A stretch of DNA of 18,142 bases, taken from the IMG/VR virus record IMGVR_UViG_2703718802_000010; one strand, given 5' to 3'. Origin of the DNA: a virus. Taxonomy: Duplodnaviria > Heunggongvirae > Uroviricota > Caudoviricetes. This document shows, piece by piece, positions 2,396 through 18,142 of the stretch. The stretch's first letter is position 1; every line of letters starts with the position of its first letter. The position numbers were made by a program, and so were the translations under genes. The notes beneath the pieces were generated by a model that saw only the letters and a list, made by a program, of their open reading frames with translations, had not been told where the DNA came from and did no database searches.

Positions 2396-3517
2396 TTAGT
2401 CATCAACCGCGACTCCTGCACAATCATGGGCTATTGCCAGCAATTGTTTTTTAATTGCTTTAGCATCTACCGTCATATCTACTGTAGCAAAATGGATCTT
2501 ATGTCCCTGAGTGACAACATACTCATTAAGCATATAGCCAACAGCTGGATGAAGTAGAAGACCAGCGGCATTGAGCGAAAGCGGATCCGTCTTGTTCTCC
2601 TGTGTTCTAAGGTAGGTATATAGCTGATAAATATAGCCATTACGTAGTGATTGCTCCCGATGCCAACCCTTTGTCAGAATCGAATTAAATTTGGTATCGA
2701 TAATAATACGCCGCTGGGCAGTCTTGTGTTCCAGAATAATGTCTGACTTCATTGTCGGGAAAATCTCTGCACTACCTGCACTTTGATCGCTCAACGCCCA
2801 TTTCAGCTCTTTCCCTGCAGAGACCTGCCAAGTTGTTTTGGCAAGGTGTACACGATATAAGCCAGCGATACCTTTTTCAAATAGTCTTCTCATCCAGTAA
2901 AGGTTATTTGAGGGCGCAGGTAAAAGATATTGGCCTTGATCTTCGGTCGGCATCAGCAGTTCAAAAGCTAATCGTGCGGCATCGACCATCGGTTTATCTG
3001 CGGCATCATGGCGTCCAAAACGCCACACTGAGGGTAATTCGCGGGGGGCAGGATATCCTCCATTTATCCCCTCACGGCGAAGTGATATTGCCATAAAATG
3101 GCAATCTGCCGCCAAAGACGGTTTCACTATGATTGAGGCCAGACGTTCTAACGCACAGCGAACATAGCGATTTCGGGGGGTGTTGAGGGTTATGTCTTGA
3201 AAATGGCAGGCAACCTGTCCCCGTTCCAGCAGTTGATGACTGGCAGTATACAGTATGTCAATGCGCCCTCTCACCCGGTTCAGGGCCGCATGACAAGTTT
3301 GGTATCCCATATTTAAATTGCGACGTCGGCGCAGCGTAATCTCATGAAGGAGGATTGTCGCCACCAGGTCGGGGATTTCTGCTGGGTTATCTTCTACTGC
3401 GATCTGATTGCGCCCTAACTGGCGAAACAGATCTGAAGCGTACAGCATCAGCATCCAGATATTTCGCATGGGAATACGTGATGCTGTATGTTGCTCACTC
3501 CCGGTTATTGTCGTCAT
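2396..3517 (-). CDS. McrC-family nuclease subunit (PD-(D/E)xK-type) of a McrBC-like restriction system, 373 aa
   Basis: N-terminal IPMRNIWMLMLYASD resembles McrC IPVRNIYYMLTYAWG; C-terminal IIIDTKFNS and YIYQLYTYL resemble the McrC catalytic-core motifs. The ATG overlaps the upstream gene's stop in an ATGA 4-bp overlap (3514-3517). Confidence 0.8.
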   Translation of the reverse strand: MTTITGSEQHTASRIPMRNIWMLMLYASDLFRQLGRNQIAVEDNPAEIPDLVATILLHEITLRRRRNLNMGYQTCHAALNRVRGRIDILYTASHQLLERGQVACHFQDITLNTPRNRYVRCALERLASIIVKPSLAADCHFMAISLRREGINGGYPAPRELPSVWRFGRHDAADKPMVDAARLAFELLMPTEDQGQYLLPAPSNNLYWMRRLFEKGIAGLYRVHLAKTTWQVSAGKELKWALSDQSAGSAEIFPTMKSDIILEHKTAQRRIIIDTKFNSILTKGWHREQSLRNGYIYQLYTYLRTQENKTDPLSLNAAGLLLHPAVGYMLNEYVVTQGHKIHFATVDMTVDAKAIKKQLLAIAHDCAGVAVDD

Positions 3518-5496
3518 TTTGCTAATAACACTTTTCTGGCTTCATCGACTTTATTTGGAGCATCGAACCAATATTCGGCGAGCAAAGGGCAGATCTCTGT
3601 ATCAACGACTTGTTCATACCAAGCCTGGGCATCGTTGATTTTTTGGCCGATAGCTGGGGTGACATAGCTGTGACCGATACAAAACTGTGGTCCTAAGGTA
3701 ACATCTTTTGCCAGCATATCGTTTAATACCGTCAGTCGAGATTTGATGAATGCTAACATGTCAAAATCAATTGCGTAATTATAATTTACCCAGTTTCTCC
3801 ACGCGTCATTAAAAGCTGGCTTTAGATCGATAAACGCGAAACGACGGCGCAGCGCTAGGTCAAGTAGTGCGAGTGAGCGGTCTGCAATATTCATCGTACC
3901 GATGATATATAGATTCTCAGGAATGTATATTTTTTCATCAGCATTTTTAGGATAGGAAAGAGATAATGCCTCAGTCGGCGTGCGTTTATCTGCTTCCATC
4001 AACGTGAGTGTTTCACCGAAGATTTGCGCCGGATTGCCACGATTAATCTCTTCAATTATCACCACATATTTCGAGGTAGGATTATTGACTGCAGTTTTGA
4101 TTGCATTTACAAAAGGTCCATCAATTAGCGTCAATTGCCCTTCTTTACCTGGACGCCAGCCTCGAATAAAGTCTTCGTAAGAGAGGTTCGGGTGAAATTG
4201 CACCGCGCTAATACGCTCAGGTGCTTTTTCTCCCATCAAGCAGTACGCCAGACGTCGCGCTAACCAAGTTTTTCCAGTTCCGGGTGGTCCTTGTAATATC
4301 AGGTTTTTCTTGTCGATCAGGCGCTGAAGTGTGAGTTGGATCTTAGCCTCTTCCAAGAAACAGCCATCCTGCACCAGATGACTGATGTCATAAGGAACGT
4401 GGGTGAGTTTTGGCAACAGCGCACTCTCTTCGACAGTTTCCTCAGTTATCGTCTGGGATTCGTTTTTCTCAAAATTCAGGTATTCATAATTTCCGGACTC
4501 GAGGGACTTTAACTCATCATCATTGCATAGTTTCTGTAGATAAAAGTAGATTGAGCTTGTAACAGTTTTGCTCTCAGGATGCTCTACCTTGAATACGTCC
4601 AAGTAGTTTTCTTCCAACTCCGAAGCAGTGAAATAAGGGCCATTTTTTTTCAGGCATAACGCCTTAATTTTATTCAGTAAAGAGGCTTTCCACGTTCTAT
4701 TTGCCACCTCATCTTTAGACTGGCTAAGATCTGTATTCCACGCTGATAAGGAAAGTTCTGGGAAAGAATGAACCGGATAGTTTGGTTGGGTAAAGACCTC
4801 GTTCAGCGCCCGCATAAGACTCAGGTAACTTTGTCCACTACAGCGACCTTTTGCCCCGTTTTTAATGATCTTAATGTTTAACACTGTCTGAATGTAATAC
4901 TGCGACTGGCTATCTAAAGTGGGGTAGAACCAAGGACGGGTCCAGTACAACCCCATGGTGAGATTCCAACCGACATTCATTACTGTAGAAGCGATGTCAT
5001 ATGCGGCAGTGAAGTCTGCAGAGTTAGTATTCTGGTTATCCGCAAAGATCATTGCCTGTGAGAACATTTCCCACAAGCATTCAATGTCATTAGGGTCGCG
5101 TGACTTTTCATAACCAAAGAACCAAGATTTTTGGTTATTCAACAGAGGGATTCCGGCAAAGGAGTCAGGAATCGGTTCGTTCACGCCCAACAAATTCGCT
5201 AGCTTGGCAGCAATAATTTTGCGATTGCTGTCGGTCAAGTTACGATTGAACAAGCCCATAGTAGTAAACGGACAAATGTCTTTTAAGGGAAAGATCTCTC
5301 CCATAATAGATTTGTCCTGCAGATGGGACATTCCTTCCACACCCGAGGCAATTAGATGAATACCTTTGACTAATTCATCTCTACGATTTCGCCAAGTCAG
5401 TAACGCGTTGGCAAAAGCCTCATAAAAACTAGCCCAAGCAAACTTGCCATCATGTTCTGCTGTATCCACGGGAACTCCATTATACTTGTTGAGCAA
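3514..5496 (-). CDS. McrB-family AAA+ GTPase with a long non-canonical N-terminal region, 651-660 aa
   Basis: Walker A LILQGPPGTGKTW (residues about 401-411), Walker B VVIIEEINRGN, then GTMNIADRS and ALRRRFAF, all McrB-type motifs. The roughly 375 residues before the AAA+ domain are not recognisable as the canonical McrB DNA-binding domain. The track start at 5496 is a TTG with no SD; a GTG at 5469-5467 preceded by GGAG (5478-5475, 5-nt spacer) is the more likely start. Confidence 0.8.
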   Translation of the reverse strand: MLNKYNGVPVDTAEHDGKFAWASFYEAFANALLTWRNRRDELVKGIHLIASGVEGMSHLQDKSIMGEIFPLKDICPFTTMGLFNRNLTDSNRKIIAAKLANLLGVNEPIPDSFAGIPLLNNQKSWFFGYEKSRDPNDIECLWEMFSQAMIFADNQNTNSADFTAAYDIASTVMNVGWNLTMGLYWTRPWFYPTLDSQSQYYIQTVLNIKIIKNGAKGRCSGQSYLSLMRALNEVFTQPNYPVHSFPELSLSAWNTDLSQSKDEVANRTWKASLLNKIKALCLKKNGPYFTASELEENYLDVFKVEHPESKTVTSSIYFYLQKLCNDDELKSLESGNYEYLNFEKNESQTITEETVEESALLPKLTHVPYDISHLVQDGCFLEEAKIQLTLQRLIDKKNLILQGPPGTGKTWLARRLAYCLMGEKAPERISAVQFHPNLSYEDFIRGWRPGKEGQLTLIDGPFVNAIKTAVNNPTSKYVVIIEEINRGNPAQIFGETLTLMEADKRTPTEALSLSYPKNADEKIYIPENLYIIGTMNIADRSLALLDLALRRRFAFIDLKPAFNDAWRNWVNYNYAIDFDMLAFIKSRLTVLNDMLAKDVTLGPQFCIGHSYVTPAIGQKINDAQAWYEQVVDTEICPLLAEYWFDAPNKVDEARKVLLAK

Positions 5497-11707: not shown

Positions 11708-13234
11708 TCAAAAATAAACCTCACCATCAACCATATATTTGAGAGTACTTATCGCCTGCTGGGCGGATATTGTTTTCATTAAAGGATAGTGTTTAAAAAC
11801 AATGCCATTCATAAAATAGATATCACAGGTTTTATTATCTGTATTGATTATGATTTTTTCGAATGTTTTATAGGCAAGTGTACGACATAGCTCTCGCCCA
11901 TTTTTACTGGTTAAGTCAATAGCATGAAAATCACCAAGTGAACTCACCGCTTTACTCTTCAAAGTTTTTAATGATACAGAAGCCCTTCGTAATTCCTTAT
12001 CTAATACTCTGATTTTTTCTGCTATAGCGGTAACTTCAGGCGCAACAGATAATGCAGCAATTAAATTATTAATTTTCATCTGGAGCTCAATAATTTTCAA
12101 CTCTAAAGTTTCATTAGCATCTTTCTTGTTTTCAACTGGTTGGATTTTACTACAATTAAAAAGCAACTCATTAATGATATTATAATCAACCAAATCTCTC
12201 TTTATTGATGGCCTGTCACATCGATGCAGTCTTCTCATCGGACAAACATAATAGCCATGCAAACTTCCAGATACCGCATGAACAATCATGGTATTACCAC
12301 AAGCCTCGCACTTCATAACTGTTCGAAGTAGATTTATCAACATAGGATTTTTGCTACTATTGCTAATACCAAAAGGTGCCAACCGAATTTCCTGCACAGC
12401 GTAAAACAAATCATCTGATATGACTCTGGGATAATAGCCAGCGATTTCACTTATTCCTTTACCTCTTGCACGATATGAAGGTACGCATATACCTATCAGA
12501 GCTTTATTCGCTAATAATTTTTCAATTACAGAAGGTCCCCATGCACTTTCTTTTCCTGAGAAATTCTTTACAGCATGATCATTTAAATACTTGGCTATTG
12601 CATTCAATGAGCGCCTTTCCATCCTGAGTTTAAAAATTAGCTCAATAGTTTTCACCCTGTCGGGGTCTGGAACAAAAGCCGTTCTTTTGTCATCCAATGA
12701 GAGCCATCTCGGACAAGACGCCGTCATAATCGTGCCTGACTCCAGTGCATCCTGCCGTTTTTTCTTCCATGATAATTTAACCCGACTTGACTTTATCTCG
12801 CTTTCTTCATTTGCCCTTTGTGCTATAAGTATGGCTTTTATTAATGAATATGGCTCATTCAATGAGTCAATATTATAGACTGTATTATCGCAAAGAGTTA
12901 TAACATCAATACCGTGATTCAAAATCAATTTCAGACGCTCAATCGCCTCACCGACTTTTTCTCTTGAAAGTCTGTCCAGACTTTCAACTAACAATGTAGT
13001 CCCTGGCAATATATAACCATGTTCTATAGCATCTAAAAATTCCGAAAAAGCTCCTGATTGTGCATGCTTTCCATTGAATGCGCTTAACCCCAAATCTTCA
13101 TACGTTACGGTATCAAGGTAATAATCACTATTTACCTTTAGCCATTCAGTAATAAGCCTTCTCTGGCGGTTTAATGAATCACCAGACATCTGACTTGGTG
13201 ATGAAAATCGCATATATGCTATGGCTTTTTTCAT
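11708..13234 (-). CDS. ybcK: Large serine recombinase (resolvase catalytic domain, recombinase domain, zinc ribbon), YbcK-like, 508 aa
   Basis: N-terminal AIAYMRFSSPSQ ... SLNRQ is a serine-recombinase catalytic motif; C-terminal Cys cluster (CEACGNT ... CPMRRLHRC). Length and adjacency to emrE match my recollection of DLP12 YbcK. Confidence 0.7.
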   Translation of the reverse strand: MKKAIAYMRFSSPSQMSGDSLNRQRRLITEWLKVNSDYYLDTVTYEDLGLSAFNGKHAQSGAFSEFLDAIEHGYILPGTTLLVESLDRLSREKVGEAIERLKLILNHGIDVITLCDNTVYNIDSLNEPYSLIKAILIAQRANEESEIKSSRVKLSWKKKRQDALESGTIMTASCPRWLSLDDKRTAFVPDPDRVKTIELIFKLRMERRSLNAIAKYLNDHAVKNFSGKESAWGPSVIEKLLANKALIGICVPSYRARGKGISEIAGYYPRVISDDLFYAVQEIRLAPFGISNSSKNPMLINLLRTVMKCEACGNTMIVHAVSGSLHGYYVCPMRRLHRCDRPSIKRDLVDYNIINELLFNCSKIQPVENKKDANETLELKIIELQMKINNLIAALSVAPEVTAIAEKIRVLDKELRRASVSLKTLKSKAVSSLGDFHAIDLTSKNGRELCRTLAYKTFEKIIINTDNKTCDIYFMNGIVFKHYPLMKTISAQQAISTLKYMVDGEVYF

Positions 13235-13489
13235 GGTGACACCTGCTAAAGTATGCTTTTATAAACCTTAGTGGTGAGATATGATTTTTGTTTAATTTTT
13301 ATTTAAAAAGACAATTAAGGTCACATTATCTTGAATATACAACAATAATCGTATTGCAATTTTCTTACACCATAATCTTGAAAGCACAAAAGAATGAATA
13401 AAAACTAAAGACATTAACAAAAAGCATAAAACGAGGCCCATATAAATATACGAGCCTCCATATTTTAGTCGTTTAAAAACAAATTATTT

Positions 13490-13822
13490 TTAATGTGGTG
13501 TGCTTCGTGACAATAAATTAATAACCAACACACCGGCACAAATCAACATCATGCCTATAATGGCTGGCAGGTCCAACCGTTGGCCGAAAAATCCCCATGA
13601 TAGTAAGCTAATCAGGACAATACCGACTCCTGACCAGATAGCATAAGCAATCCCTGTAGGAATATAAGCCAGCGTCTGAGCTAATAACCAGAATGATGCA
13701 CAATAACAAATAATTGTACCAACAGATGGCCATAACCGTGTAAAACCTTCTGAAAACTTCATTAAGGTTGTACCAATGACCTCTGCAAGTATTGCACCAC
13801 CAAGATAAATATAAGGATTCAT
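13490..13822 (-). CDS. emrE: SMR-family multidrug efflux protein EmrE, 110 aa
   Basis: MNPYIYLGGAILAEVIGTTLMKFSEGFTRLWPSVGTIICYCASFWLLAQTL ... LSRSTPH matches EmrE. The longer 128-aa track ORF has an upstream in-frame extension that I reject in favour of the MNPYIYLGG start. Confidence 0.9.
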   Translation of the reverse strand: MNPYIYLGGAILAEVIGTTLMKFSEGFTRLWPSVGTIICYCASFWLLAQTLAYIPTGIAYAIWSGVGIVLISLLSWGFFGQRLDLPAIIGMMLICAGVLVINLLSRSTPH

Positions 13823-13889
13823 AGCATATTCTTTCCTGTTCAAACTGGAGAGAATTGTACTACAGTTTGAACTCAACTCACCTGTTTCA

Positions 13890-14192
13890 TCATTGTGTAC
13901 CCATTGATGTTCTTTTATATACCCTCAATACCCGTTTCATCGCGGCACTCTGGCGACACTCCTTAAAAATCAAATTCGTGCTCACCTTTCCTTCCCATTC
14001 TTCTCTGGTAGCGAACCGATAATACACCGTTCGCCAGACCTTACCATCAACGACTAGGATTCCTGCCCGCGCCATTTTAGCCGCAGCCTGATTTATGCTG
14101 GTTACCGTTGCGCCTGTTACCGCGGCAACGTCCTGCGCACAGAATTTCTTATGAGTCCCCAGGTAATGAATAATTGACTCTTTGCCCGTCAT
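13890..14192 (-). CDS. ren: Ren protein (Rex-exclusion resistance), lambda-like
   Basis: MTGKESIIHYLGTH ... VTSINQAAAKMARAG ... VWRTVYYRFATREE matches lambda Ren as I recall it; start overlaps the P stop. Confidence 0.8.
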   Translation of the reverse strand: MTGKESIIHYLGTHKKFCAQDVAAVTGATVTSINQAAAKMARAGILVVDGKVWRTVYYRFATREEWEGKVSTNLIFKECRQSAAMKRVLRVYKRTSMGTQ

Positions 14193-14890
14193 ACCCTTGC
14201 TCCTTTCAGCCCAAACTTAGCTTTGATTTCTGCGATCTTCGCCAGAGCCTGTGCACGATTTAGAGGTCTACCGCCCATGACAGGAAGTTGTTTTACTGGT
14301 TCAGGTATAGCCTCACCACGGTTAATTCGTGCGGTCATACAGGACAGTTCATCGGCAGCCTTGCGCCGTAATTCCGCGTCAGTCAACGCATTGGCCCGCA
14401 TGTTCTGATACAGGTTGGTAACCAGCCAGTAGTGCGCGTTTGATTTCCACGGATAAGACTCTGCATCCGGATACAGCCCGCGCTTCCGGCAATACTCGTA
14501 AACCATATCAACCAGCTCGCTGGCGTTTGGCAGCCCGGCGGTAACGGATGCTTCTTCCCGGCACCAGGCGACAAACTGCCCGGGTGATGGCAGGAATGGT
14601 CGATTCTGCCGACGGGCTACGCGCATTCCAGCGTTAACCTGTTCCATTGTGGTGATCCCGTTTTCCCGAAAAGCCAGCACCCACTGGCGGCGGATTTCGT
14701 TCAGTTCGTTCTGGTCACGGTTAGCCAGGCTCGCCGGGAAAGTTGCCAGTAACTGGCTGAACACACCGTTGATGATCTGCGCTACCTGCTGTACCTGTGG
14801 CTTTTCGTCATACTGTTCCGGCATGTTGTTGGCGATCCGACGCATCTGCTCACGGTCAAAGTTAACCATCTGTGCGGCGATGTTTTTCAT
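14189..14890 (-). CDS. P: Replication protein P (DnaB-helicase loader), full length, 233 aa
   Basis: Near-identical over all 233 aa to my recollection of lambda P (MKNIAAQMVNFDREQMRRIANNMPEQYDEKPQ ... KFGLKGA). Confidence 0.9.
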   Translation of the reverse strand: MKNIAAQMVNFDREQMRRIANNMPEQYDEKPQVQQVAQIINGVFSQLLATFPASLANRDQNELNEIRRQWVLAFRENGITTMEQVNAGMRVARRQNRPFLPSPGQFVAWCREEASVTAGLPNASELVDMVYEYCRKRGLYPDAESYPWKSNAHYWLVTNLYQNMRANALTDAELRRKAADELSCMTARINRGEAIPEPVKQLPVMGGRPLNRAQALAKIAEIKAKFGLKGARV

Positions 14891-15135
14891 AGATCCACCC
14901 CGTAAATCCAGTCAGTGTTTGTCAGGTCGAGTTTTGGTTTGCCGACTGTCACGCCAGCCTGTTGCTTGTTCCGGTTGATTTCGAGCTGGGTCCACTTGTC
15001 GCGGAGTTTGGCCGGACTCAGCACGTTACCGGACCAGAAGTTGTCCTGGCAGGCCCAGCGGAACAGTACACACATGTCGCGGTGGTTACGTCCATCACGT
15101 TCACGCATCAGACGGATATCGTTAGGCGCGATCAC
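14887..15135 (-). pseudogene. O: C-terminal fragment (about 82 codons) of replication initiator O
   Basis: Ends KPKLDLTNTDWIYGVDL, which I recognise as the lambda O C-terminus. The N-terminal origin-binding domain and the ori sequence region are absent; an in-frame stop lies upstream. Confidence 0.65.
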
Positions 15136-15249
15136 TTTCGTCTACTCCATTACAAAGCGAGGCTGGGTATTTCCCGGCCTTTCTGTTATCAGAAATCCAC
15201 TGAAAGCACAGCGGCTGGCTGAGAAGATAAATAACAAACAGGAGGATAT

Positions 15250-16314
15250 ATGAGTCAGGTTGGTAATCATTCATTCGAATTTCCGGCATCGCAAGGTGTA
15301 CAGGGTGGTACTGTTACACTCTTCCTTACCATACCAGGAAGATCGCTGGCTCGTTTCCTCGCTTCAGATAATTACGGCCATACACTGGAACGCTCTCAGC
15401 GAGAAATTAATCCAAATCGAGTACGAAAATTTTTAAATTATCTCACTAACGCAGACTCAAGAAATGAGCCTTTTATCATTCCCCCTCTCGTAGGTAACTG
15501 TGATTCGAATATAGAATTTGTACCGTTTGGCAACACAAATGTTGGTATAGCCAGAATTCCCCTCGACGCCGAAATAAAACTTTTTGATGGTCAACATCGT
15601 GCAGCTGGCATTGAGATATTTTGCCGAAGTTCCCCATCAACGCTCATGGTTCCCATGATGCTTACAATGAATCTGCCGCTAAAAACCCGGCAGCAGTTCT
15701 TTTCGGACATAAATAACAACGTTTCTAAGCCATCAGCGACCATCAATATGGCGTATAACGGCCGGGATGATATTGCTCAGGGAATGATATCCTTCCTGAC
15801 CCAACATACTGTATTTGCCGATATAACCGATTTTGAACACAACGTAGTGCCATTAAAAAGTAATATGTGGGTGAGTTTCAAGGCACTCACTGATGCAACG
15901 TCAAAGTTCGCTAGGAACGGCAATCAACAACTTGAAATGGGATATATAGAATCTGTCTGGGAGGCATGGATTACACTAACTCAGATTGACTCAATCCGAC
16001 ATGGTGTACACCACGCTACGTACAAGCGCGATTATATTCAGTTCCATGGAGTAATGATTAACGCTTTCGGTTTTGCGGTTCAACAGATGATGGTTAATCA
16101 TTCCATCGCAGAAATAACTTCTATGATCGAAAAACTATGTGCAACTACCAGCTCTGCAGAAAGAGAGGATTTTTTTCTGATGGATAACTGGGCGGGGATC
16201 TGCACGAAAGCCAGCCAGGAAAAACTATCTGTTATTGCCAATGTGGCAGCGCAGAAAGCAGCAGCAAACAGACTGATACAAGCTTTTACCAAAGGAAGTC
16301 TGGAAACAACTTAA
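15250..16314 (+). CDS. DGQHR-domain protein (DndB-like, ParB/sulfiredoxin-fold superfamily), 354 aa
   Basis: Contains the exact motif FDGQHR (KLFDGQHRAAGIEIF) at the position typical of the DGQHR/DndB family, and the length fits. Strong SD (CAGGAGGA) 6 nt upstream of the ATG. Confidence 0.65.
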   Translation: MSQVGNHSFEFPASQGVQGGTVTLFLTIPGRSLARFLASDNYGHTLERSQREINPNRVRKFLNYLTNADSRNEPFIIPPLVGNCDSNIEFVPFGNTNVGIARIPLDAEIKLFDGQHRAAGIEIFCRSSPSTLMVPMMLTMNLPLKTRQQFFSDINNNVSKPSATINMAYNGRDDIAQGMISFLTQHTVFADITDFEHNVVPLKSNMWVSFKALTDATSKFARNGNQQLEMGYIESVWEAWITLTQIDSIRHGVHHATYKRDYIQFHGVMINAFGFAVQQMMVNHSIAEITSMIEKLCATTSSAEREDFFLMDNWAGICTKASQEKLSVIANVAAQKAAANRLIQAFTKGSLETT

Positions 16315-16467
16315 TGAATCAACATTGTCTCATATCAGCATGCTGTACGGCGTCTTTAAGGAACGGTGAGCATGAAAAACAAAATCATCATGGAGCTACA
16401 GGCTCCTTTTTTATTATTCGCATTCACCCTCAAGCGTATTAACCAACAATTCAGGGATTAATGAAAG

Positions 16468-16686
16468 ATGGCAGACATCATTGATTCAGCATCAGAAATT
16501 GAAGAATTACAGCGCAACACAGCAATAAAAATGCGCCGCCTGAACCACCAGGCTATATCTGCCACTCATTGTTGTGAGTGTGGCGATCCGATAGATGAAC
16601 GAAGACGCCTGGCCGTTCAGGGTTGTCGGACTTGTGCAAGTTGCCAGGAGGAGATCGAACTTAAGAACAAACAATGGGGACTGTGA
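16468..16686 (+). CDS. TraR/DksA-family C4 zinc-finger protein, 72 aa
   Basis: CCECGDPIDERRRLAVQGCRTCASCQ has the CxxC-N17-CxxC arrangement of phage TraR/DksA-like proteins. Confidence 0.7.
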   Translation: MADIIDSASEIEELQRNTAIKMRRLNHQAISATHCCECGDPIDERRRLAVQGCRTCASCQEEIELKNKQWGL

Positions 16687-16733: not shown

Positions 16734-16973
16734 ATGTTCAGAATCATTTTTCCTAACACCTGGTACGTCGACCACCACGGCACTCCCTGCAAAATCCTGC
16801 GTTCTACCCACAACAAAGTTCACTACATCCGAAAAGGCAGAACATGTATCGCCAGCATGTTCCGCTTTAATCATGACTTTGAACCTGTGAATAAAGCTGA
16901 TGCAGATCGGATAGCAGAAGAGATCGAAACGGCAGAACACATTAAGAAGTTACGTGCCATACGCAGGAAATAG
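16734..16973 (+). CDS. Hypothetical phage early protein, 79 aa
   Basis: ORF with SD GAGGTG 6 nt upstream; co-oriented with xis and int. No domain recognised. Confidence 0.45.
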   Translation: MFRIIFPNTWYVDHHGTPCKILRSTHNKVHYIRKGRTCIASMFRFNHDFEPVNKADADRIAEEIETAEHIKKLRAIRRK

Positions 16974-17112: not shown

Positions 17113-17349
17113 ATGTCTCGACTAATCACTTTACAGGACTGGGCTAAAGAAGAATTTGGGGACTTAGCACCAAGTGAGCGAGTTCTGAAAAAATACGCGC
17201 AAGGGAAAATGATGGCCCCACCCGCTATAAAAGTTGGTCGCTACTGGATGATTGACCGAAATTCCCGTTTTGTAGGAACGCTTGCAGAACCGCAACTCCC
17301 AATAAACGCAAACCCAAAACTCCAACGGATAATCGCTGATGGCTGCTAG
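17113..17349 (+). CDS. xis: Excisionase Xis, lambda-like
   Basis: LITLQDWAKEEF ... PPAIKVGRYWMIDRNS resembles lambda Xis (YLTLQEWNARQ ... PPPVKDGREYLFHESA). SD AGGAGGA upstream; 3' end overlaps the int start. Confidence 0.75.
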   Translation: MSRLITLQDWAKEEFGDLAPSERVLKKYAQGKMMAPPAIKVGRYWMIDRNSRFVGTLAEPQLPINANPKLQRIIADGC

Positions 17350-18142
17350 ACCCCGATCTCACAAAATCTCTATACCCAATTTATATTGCAAATTAGATAA
17401 GCGAACCGGAAAGGTATATTGGCAATACAAACATCCACTATCCGGTCGTTTTCATAGCTTAGGAACTGATGAGAATGAAGCAAAACAAGTTGCTACTGAA
17501 GCAAATACCATTATTGCTGAACAACGTACCAGACAAATATTAAGCGTCAATGAGCGTCTGGAAAGAATGAAAGGCAGGCGCTCAGACATTACGGTGACAG
17601 AATGGCTTGATAAATATATTTCTATCCAGGAGGACAGGCTGCAACATAATGAACTAAGACCCAACTCCTATCGGCAAAAAGGCAAACCCATTCGTCTTTT
17701 CCGTGAGCATTGTGGAATGCAACACCTCAAGGATATTACCGCACTTGATATTGCCGAAATAATTGATGCTGTAAAGGCTGAAGGTCATAACAGGATGGCG
17801 CAAGTCGTGAGAATGGTGTTGATCGACGTCTTCAAAGAAGCACAACACGCAGGACATGTTCCGCCAGGATTTAACCCTGCGCAGGCAACAAAACAACCGC
17901 GAAATCGAGTAAACCGCCAAAGATTGTCACTGCTCGAATGGCAGGCAATATTTGAAAGCGTAAGCAGACGGCAGCCCTATTTAAAATGCGGCATGCTACT
18001 TGCTCTTGTTACTGGACAACGTTTAGGCGATATCTGCAATTTGAAATTCTCTGATATATGGGACGACATGTTGCACATTACTCAGGAAAAAACCGGTTCA
18101 AAACTTGCTATTCCGCTTAACCTGAATAGACTGGCCCCCTGA
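17339..18142 (+). CDS. int: Lambda-family tyrosine integrase, 3'-truncated by the window edge (267 aa seen)
   Basis: MAARPRSHKISIPNLY ... ALVTGQRLGDICNLKFSDI parallels lambda Int (RRSHERRDLPPNLY ... AVVTGQRVGDLCEMKWSDI). The catalytic C-terminus lies beyond the window. Confidence 0.85.
   Translation: MAARPRSHKISIPNLYCKLDKRTGKVYWQYKHPLSGRFHSLGTDENEAKQVATEANTIIAEQRTRQILSVNERLERMKGRRSDITVTEWLDKYISIQEDRLQHNELRPNSYRQKGKPIRLFREHCGMQHLKDITALDIAEIIDAVKAEGHNRMAQVVRMVLIDVFKEAQHAGHVPPGFNPAQATKQPRNRVNRQRLSLLEWQAIFESVSRRQPYLKCGMLLALVTGQRLGDICNLKFSDIWDDMLHITQEKTGSKLAIPLNLNRLAP

Follow-up and report, generated by a model that had tools for sequence, protein, structure and literature searches.

The closest described counterpart of the gene considered here is DndB, an ATP-modulated repressor that limits DNA modification and whose Cys29 is essential for DNA binding and regulation in the Salmonella enterica protein (PMC4507180). 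DndB-family proteins have hitherto been treated as parts of phosphorothioation clusters. The hallmarks of the DGQHR domain have been defined as the motifs QR, DGQHR and FxxxN (PMC4619093), and a DndB-like protein has been reported to bind both ATP and GTP (PMC12704722). A second point of reference is DpdB, which carries a DGQQR motif, is described as SspE/DUF262-like and works together with DpdA and DpdC; DNA modification by DpdA depends on the ATPase of DpdB, and a nucleoside triphosphate (NTP)-gated clamp has been proposed (PMC10164549). Here we describe an orphan DGQHR/DndB-family gene in the virus record IMGVR_UViG_2703718802_000010, a stretch of 18,142 nucleotides (nt) referred to below as the window. 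This stretch is a lambdoid, phage-21-like prophage, defective and integrated at icd of Escherichia coli, and the gene forms a single-gene accessory cassette in the pL-driven early-left part, between the recombination genes and xis-int. It represents a known domain family in an unstudied, mobile-element-specific form: the protein is not DndB and is not part of any Dnd or Dpd system, and the branch to which it belongs takes in PHROG 7901 and, beyond the gene described here, homologues on over 1,000 plasmids, IncL/M resistance plasmids among them.

The gene is an open reading frame of 354 amino acids (aa) with an ATG start, and is laid out as follows.

15240-15245, plus strand: AGGAGG Shine-Dalgarno sequence, 4 nt 5′ of the ATG of the DGQHR gene, read from the sequence
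15250-16314, plus strand: orphan DGQHR/DndB-family gene, with a predicted N-terminal ParB/sulfiredoxin (Srx)-fold domain at about residues 8-200 and a C-terminal helical domain
15583-15600, plus strand: codons of the DGQHR signature F112-D-G-Q-H-R117, located from the sequence and alignments

An initial annotation, made from the letters of the DNA, had named a DGQHR protein of the DndB type at these positions, and profile searches bear this out at exactly these coordinates. The TIGR03187 DGQHR profile gives 188.8 bits against a cut-off of 58.85 (E 1.5e-55) and Pfam PF14072 (DndB) gives 158.2 bits against 29.1 (E 3.8e-46), both as whole-domain matches. Profile positions 1-276 of 276 are covered in TIGR03187, so that the similarity extends well beyond the pentapeptide and the FDGQHR match is not the isolated one that the annotation had allowed for. 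The DndB model of PADLOC also matches (E 4e-37), and the protein is a near-perfect member of PHROG 7901 (E 7e-216), a family that has no assigned function. All three hallmark motifs are present, as Q50-R51, D113-G-Q-H-R117 and F151-S-D-I-N155, and they fall in invariant or nearly invariant columns of alignments of 48 and 62 sequences; the invariant columns are R48, Q50, R51, D113, G114, Q115, R117, F151, D153 and N155.

The DGQHR motif is the counterpart of the GxxR P-motif of ParB and of the GCHR motif of sulfiredoxin. In the predicted model, which is alignment-based (a single-sequence AlphaFold version, with a predicted local distance difference test score of 38, was discarded), an N-terminal alpha+beta domain adopts the ParB/sulfiredoxin fold and is followed by a helical C-terminal domain. 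The N-terminal domain is thus predicted to have the NTP-binding fold of that superfamily, with the family signature residues all intact. A Foldseek search of the model against the PDB returned no significant match, no relative with a solved structure turned up when PDB sequences were searched, and matches in BFVD were generic ParB, DndB or GmrS-like proteins that gave no functional lead. Structural similarity to GmrSD/SspE-type proteins is confined to the N-terminal domain; those proteins combine DUF262 with a nuclease, whereas a Pfam search of the 354-aa protein gave DndB as the sole match, with no C-terminal HNH or DUF1524 domain and no PF02195 ParBc or HTH_ParB. Since the PADLOC search matched its DndB model alone, no stand-alone defence family applies.

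Comparison with DndB itself reveals kinship without identity. The two share PF14072 and TIGR03187, the QR, DGQHR and FxxxN motifs, a similar length, a similar two-domain layout and an alignment over most of the length. However, identity to proteins named DndB by NCBI is only 20-25%, the DndB equivalog model TIGR03233 gives 106.9 bits, below its threshold of 328, and the clade of the window protein has its own insertion and a conserved Cys318 in the C-terminal domain. The position of the regulatory Cys29, a Cys in true DndBs, is Ile28 here and I, V, A or M across the mobile-element clade. The gene also differs in being carried on phages and plasmids and in lacking a dndC, dndD or dndE neighbour. 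Searching the window by tblastn with DndC, DndD and DndE, using queries from a genuine dndBCDE locus (L060) that served as the positive control, gave no match, and in a set of 41 loci taken at one genome per species none of the 40 usable ones had any of the three within 6 kb; none was found in the phage loci either. In short, the absence of dnd or dpd partners from the window, as read in the initial annotation, is upheld, and no dnd, dpd or transglycosylase-like gene is annotated in a near-identical stretch that is about 0.68 kb longer at the O′|exo junction, though no search was aimed at dpd or ssp genes in the host genome. The accompanying premise that DGQHR proteins normally go with Dpd clusters is doubtful, as DpdB is described with DGQQR (PMC10164549). 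The window protein has DGQHR at this motif, a contrast drawn from the published description of DpdB and not from a direct sequence comparison.

That annotation had also asked about dnd genes elsewhere in the genome, and this was addressed at the population level, across complete E. coli genomes and not for the window's source genome individually. The gene is present at 99% identity or more in 284 of 5,426 genomes, and dndC in 207. The two occur together in 10, against 10.8 expected if they were independent, and dndC is absent from the other 274 of the 284; these figures come from a concatenated query in which 274 records matched best to the DGQHR part, and they rest on the search tool's ‘best place’ ranking rule. 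Co-occurrence is at the chance level, and the gene is independent of Dnd. Its E. coli form comprises 17 alleles with 18 synonymous and 7 non-synonymous variable sites, a nonsense change (E47*) among the latter, and one further copy (H47) is split by IS1. The allele is conserved and the gene maintained.

The genomic slot can be placed by reference to lambda. The plus-strand block of the window runs DGQHR, TraR, DUF4222, xis and int, with the following features downstream of the gene.

16392-16416, plus strand: terminator-like GC hairpin and T run between the DGQHR and TraR genes, putative, from a consensus scan only
16468-16686, plus strand: TraR/DksA zinc-finger gene (PF01258), counterpart of lambda orf73
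16734-16973, plus strand: DUF4222 gene
17113-17349, plus strand: excisionase gene xis (PF07825)
17339-18142, plus strand: lambda-type integrase gene int of the icd-integrated prophage, cut by the window end

All E. coli-type loci with intact flanks show the order DUF1317(orf60a)-DGQHR-TraR(orf73)-DUF4222-xis-int. DUF1317 is lambda orf60a, and the title of PMC9239242 gives lambda Orf73 as a TraR homologue. The DGQHR gene therefore occupies the lambda exo-xis region, replacing orf63/orf61: it lies between exo/orf60a and xis on the pL strand, with only the 3′ part of orf60a left in the window. The early-left accessory position, and the TraR/DksA gene followed by xis-int, are as initially annotated. 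The further reading that the gene is the first of its operon is an artefact of decay, an appearance produced by deletions that took away exo, pL, N, cI and part of orf60a at its 5′ end; intact prophages whose gene is 99-100% identical (L018) read cI ... gam, bet, exo, DUF1317, DGQHR, TraR, ..., xis, int. With the lambda exo-xis genes (orf60a, orf63, orf61, orf73, ea22 and ea8.5) the DGQHR gene shares this slot and presumably early pL-dependent expression, but there is no sequence relationship, and at 354 aa with an enzyme-like fold it is far larger. Nor does it correspond to a conserved lambdoid recombination function of known role, an option the annotation had raised, as the gene replaces orf63/orf61 and has no known role. 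A fixed partnership with DUF1317 was considered and rejected: lambda has orf60a without a DGQHR gene and many relatives lack orf60a, so the adjacency is positional.

Homologues at 53-73% identity are spread through the Enterobacterales. The phage relatives, at 56-73% identity, lie in early-left operons of unrelated temperate phages, again between recombination genes and integrase, as in the Uetakevirus SPN1S, Klebsiella lambdoids, and Serratia and Tatumella prophages. Among 56 phage loci not of the E. coli type, a methyltransferase is encoded directly downstream of the DGQHR gene in 15, usually with a 4-nt overlap with the DGQHR stop, although many IMG/VR loci are near-duplicates and the counts are therefore not independent events. 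These enzymes belong to three unrelated families (MT-A70 in 13 loci, Dam PF05869 in 1 and N6_N4 PF01555 in 1). The downstream gene otherwise encodes a multi-helix-turn-helix (multi-HTH) protein in 26 loci and an Ea22-like protein in 2, and the rest are assorted. In the set taken at one genome per species, a methyltransferase lies downstream in 7 loci and ArdA nearby in 8. In Vibrio phage p42, whose DGQHR protein is longer, a C5-methylase gene and then the integrase gene come next.

Two side observations concern these phage loci. In 26 IMG/VR loci (L096-L126; e.g. L096 1711-2247), small proteins with two or three repeats resembling HTH or sigma-70 region 4 are encoded after, and sometimes before, the DGQHR gene. 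In Pseudoalteromonas phage KB12-38 (L055, 1935-6553), a DndB-like gene at 31% identity lies near a gene for a PAPS-reductase-domain protein; a nearby gene of this record (about 78 kb, deposited as a partial genome) is labelled C5 cytosine methylase in the record annotation only, and the gene set suggests a phage-encoded DNA-modification cluster.

Relatives at 36-56% identity are found on plasmids, with tblastn matches in 1,071 PLSDB records, of which 885 are typed as conjugative. On IncL/M plasmids, on a MOBF plasmid and on further plasmids from E. coli and Salmonella, the neighbours on the same strand are RadC/JAB, Hha, ArdA, single-stranded DNA-binding protein (SSB), KorA/TrfB, DnaJ-domain and SprT/ArdC-like genes. 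The gene lies a few kb from mobA/traI or stbB, which corresponds to the leading or establishment region, an assignment made from neighbour genes and orientation rather than from mapped origins of transfer, and with the timing of expression inferred. Plasmid leading regions are enriched in anti-defence genes, orphan methylases, SSBs and ParB homologues (PMC11541004, PMC7736820). In pOXA-48-type IncL plasmids (about 63.6 kb; PLSDB H116-H131), a highly successful group of carbapenemase plasmids, IS1 interrupts the DGQHR gene, which other IncL/M plasmids, for example L059, carry intact.

A sister plasmid lineage, at 35-40% identity to the query, has the DGQHR gene followed by a gene for a DndC-like protein of 626-670 aa that shares 30-32% identity with the PP-loop part of DndC. 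No DndD or DndE was found near this pair. The two genes may form a DNA-modification module, either minimal or novel in kind; in pF217-2 a mer/IS26 insertion has cut short the DndC-like one. The module was located in three records.

L182, 8001-11012: sister-lineage two-gene module
L184, 8001-11536: sister-lineage two-gene module
L139, 8001-9653: sister-lineage two-gene module

Across phages and plasmids, then, the gene is found time and again beside genes for DNA-modifying enzymes, of at least five unrelated kinds. ParB-methyltransferase fusions have a comparable association with methyltransferases; here the genes are adjacent, with no fusion to an effector domain. With those fusions and with ParB-domain proteins, including Osa and KorB, the window protein shares the superfamily fold and a mobile-element early-entry context. 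Unlike partition ParB, it is accompanied by no ParA in the window, and it belongs to the DGQHR/DndB branch rather than to PF02195 ParBc, with no HTH_ParB.

From this context we infer, tentatively, that the family encodes an early-made protein with NTP-dependent DNA binding that promotes establishment of the element or its escape from restriction; we regard this as possible, while falling short of probable. The protein would be produced very early after the DNA of the element enters a cell, and as an NTP-gated DNA-binding factor it would aid the incoming element in establishing itself or in evading host defences. The likeliest mechanism would be to help or regulate covalent self-modification of the element's DNA, modelled on the way in which the DpdB ATPase enables DpdA and DndB tunes Dnd. 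A wider proposal, which we find somewhat doubtful as it stands, is that the mobile-element DndB/DGQHR branch is an unrecognised establishment or counter-defence class: an NTP-gated clamp or regulator, made on entry, that would work with a modifying enzyme supplied by the element or host to mark or shield the DNA before restriction. The partners envisaged would be MT-A70, Dam, N4/N6 or C5 methylases, or the DndC-like enzyme. What lends the branch its interest is that it is large and coherent, lives outside the phosphorothioation clusters, and is found where mobile DNA keeps its first-expressed genes, namely the early-left operon of temperate phages and the leading region of conjugative plasmids. 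If true, the proposal would mean a new class of protein in the repertoire of anti-defence and establishment, would point to DGQHR/ParB-fold NTPases serving generally as partners of DNA-modification enzymes, and would bear on how IncL/M resistance plasmids spread.

Several observations weigh against a role in establishment through self-modification. Early or leading-region location is correlative, and Osa-like exclusion genes are said to occupy such regions too. The E. coli-type loci, including the window, have no adjacent modification enzyme, and in 26 of the 56 phage loci it is the multi-HTH protein, not a methyltransferase, that follows. A scan for sigma-70-like promoters upstream of the DGQHR gene in the window predicted none. 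The pOXA-48-type IncL plasmids spread well with a split homologue, and the gene is therefore dispensable at least there. Canonical DndB represses, limiting modification rather than helping it (PMC4507180). Finally, a literature search returned no study of PHROG 7901, of the WP_000084449 protein or of close relatives, and no experimental account of a defence system being inhibited or evaded by a member of the branch; a DGQHR family of 7 members is listed uncommented in the supplement of a plasmid leading-region paper.

For the copy in the window, as distinct from the family, it is rather probable that the gene is a passenger without function, left whole but promoterless in a decaying prophage and retained only because the decay is recent; this would be compatible with any function at the family level. 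The minus strand carries, from the left, ycgX, iraM, an icd 3′ duplicate, a McrBC-like pair, tail-fibre genes, ybcK, emrE, ren, P and an O stump, and the features around the break are as follows.

13890-14192, minus strand: lambda-type ren, beside P
14189-14890, minus strand: lambda-type replication gene P
14887-15124, minus strand: C-terminal remnant of replication gene O, matching the C-terminus of the 339-aa O in L018
15123-15124, no strand: deletion junction from the O stump to the DUF1317 remnant, from blastn break points
15124-15253, plus strand: 3′ remnant of the orf60a-like DUF1317 gene, its last 43 codons (tblastn 97.7% identity, 15122-15250)

Because the O remnant, P and ren sit on the strand opposite to the DGQHR gene, the immunity and pL region must be missing. 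At the junction the orf60a/DUF1317 gene has lost its first 28 nt, and the stop codon of the remnant shares an ATGA overlap with the DGQHR start. The O stump of the closest genomes is followed by a truncated exo, DUF1317 and the DGQHR gene; a segment of 677 bp (exo′ and the start of DUF1317) that is present in FORC_064 and NCTC9100 is absent from the window. The exact junction was found in one IMG/VR contig (L014) and in just 1 of the 5,426 complete E. coli genomes (RM10410). With pL, N, cI and exo gone and the 5′ end of orf60a lost, the operon has been decapitated, and for this reason the copy is probably not expressed, or has at most adventitious transcription. The lack of a predicted promoter, the rarity of the exact junction, and the IS1-split and nonsense copies elsewhere in E. 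coli point the same way. Against the passenger explanation stand the intact reading frame and Shine-Dalgarno sequence, identical to those of copies in intact prophages, the mostly synonymous allele polymorphism, and the possibility of read-through or cryptic transcription. The window copy, though intact, is stranded. Its own message is more modest than that of the branch: a well-conserved accessory cassette stranded in a decaying prophage.

At the level of the family, a developmental regulator is an alternative that we consider unlikely. The protein would be a DndB-like, NTP-modulated, sequence-specific repressor that tunes phage or host transcription and the lysis-lysogeny decision, as has been reported for other exo-xis genes. 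However, the Cys29 that is essential to DndB is replaced by Ile28 and is unconserved in the mobile-element clade, and the same family occurs in plasmid leading regions, where there is no lysis-lysogeny decision to be tuned. Pure regulation would also leave unexplained the repeated coupling to several unrelated families of modification enzyme.

It is quite unlikely that the family serves in exclusion or defence, with a ParB/Srx-fold NTPase/DNase that blocks or attacks competing DNA to the benefit of the resident element, like Osa of pSa or the N-terminal domains of GmrS and SspE. The resemblance to those proteins lies in the fold, whereas no nuclease domain accompanies it, Pfam finding DndB only, and no stand-alone defence family of PADLOC is matched. 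The pL operon is expected to be silenced by the repressor in lysogens. The gene lies in this operon in intact prophages, and not in a lysogen-expressed moron position, while the plasmid copies sit among genes for entry into a new host and not in defence islands. The initial annotation had suggested an anti-defence factor, a sensor of DNA modification or a stand-alone exclusion gene; of these, the genomic context speaks for anti-defence or establishment rather than for exclusion.

Interference with host Dnd systems, in which the homologue would titrate DndB operators or recruit the host's DndACDE to incoming DNA and so evade DndFGH restriction, draws on the homology to DndB, on the DndC-like partner in the sister plasmid lineage and on the dnd clusters of 207 of the 5,426 E. 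coli genomes, which mean that such hosts are met, but it is highly improbable given the low identity to true DndB, the lost regulatory Cys29, a co-occurrence with dndC that is neither enriched nor depleted, and the absence of dnd from most hosts of the phages and plasmids concerned.

Some further features of the prophage were noted. A McrC-like gene (PF10117, 373 aa) and a gene for a McrB-like AAA_5 ATPase of 660 aa lie on the minus strand at 2396-5496, between the icd duplicate and a tail-fibre assembly gene, and are labelled ‘mcrC’ and ‘AAA family ATPase’ in RefSeq; they are a candidate prophage-borne type IV restriction pair. A functional link between this pair and the DGQHR gene some 10 kb away was considered and is unsupported, as copies of the DGQHR gene at 99-100% identity occur in differing prophages, with another integrase and another gene set over the stretch fetched, which does not extend to their far ends. 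The duplicate of the icd 3′ end (1478-1694) is 92.6% identical to the real icd end and is carried in the annotation as a partial pseudogene of isocitrate dehydrogenase; it marks where the icd-integrated prophage has its left attachment site. The prophage also holds emrE, a gene for multidrug efflux, grouped on the minus strand with ybcK (a large serine recombinase) and ren beside P (11708-14192). We take this grouping to resemble the DLP12 arrangement, and the prophage as a whole looks like a mosaic of lambdoid remnants.

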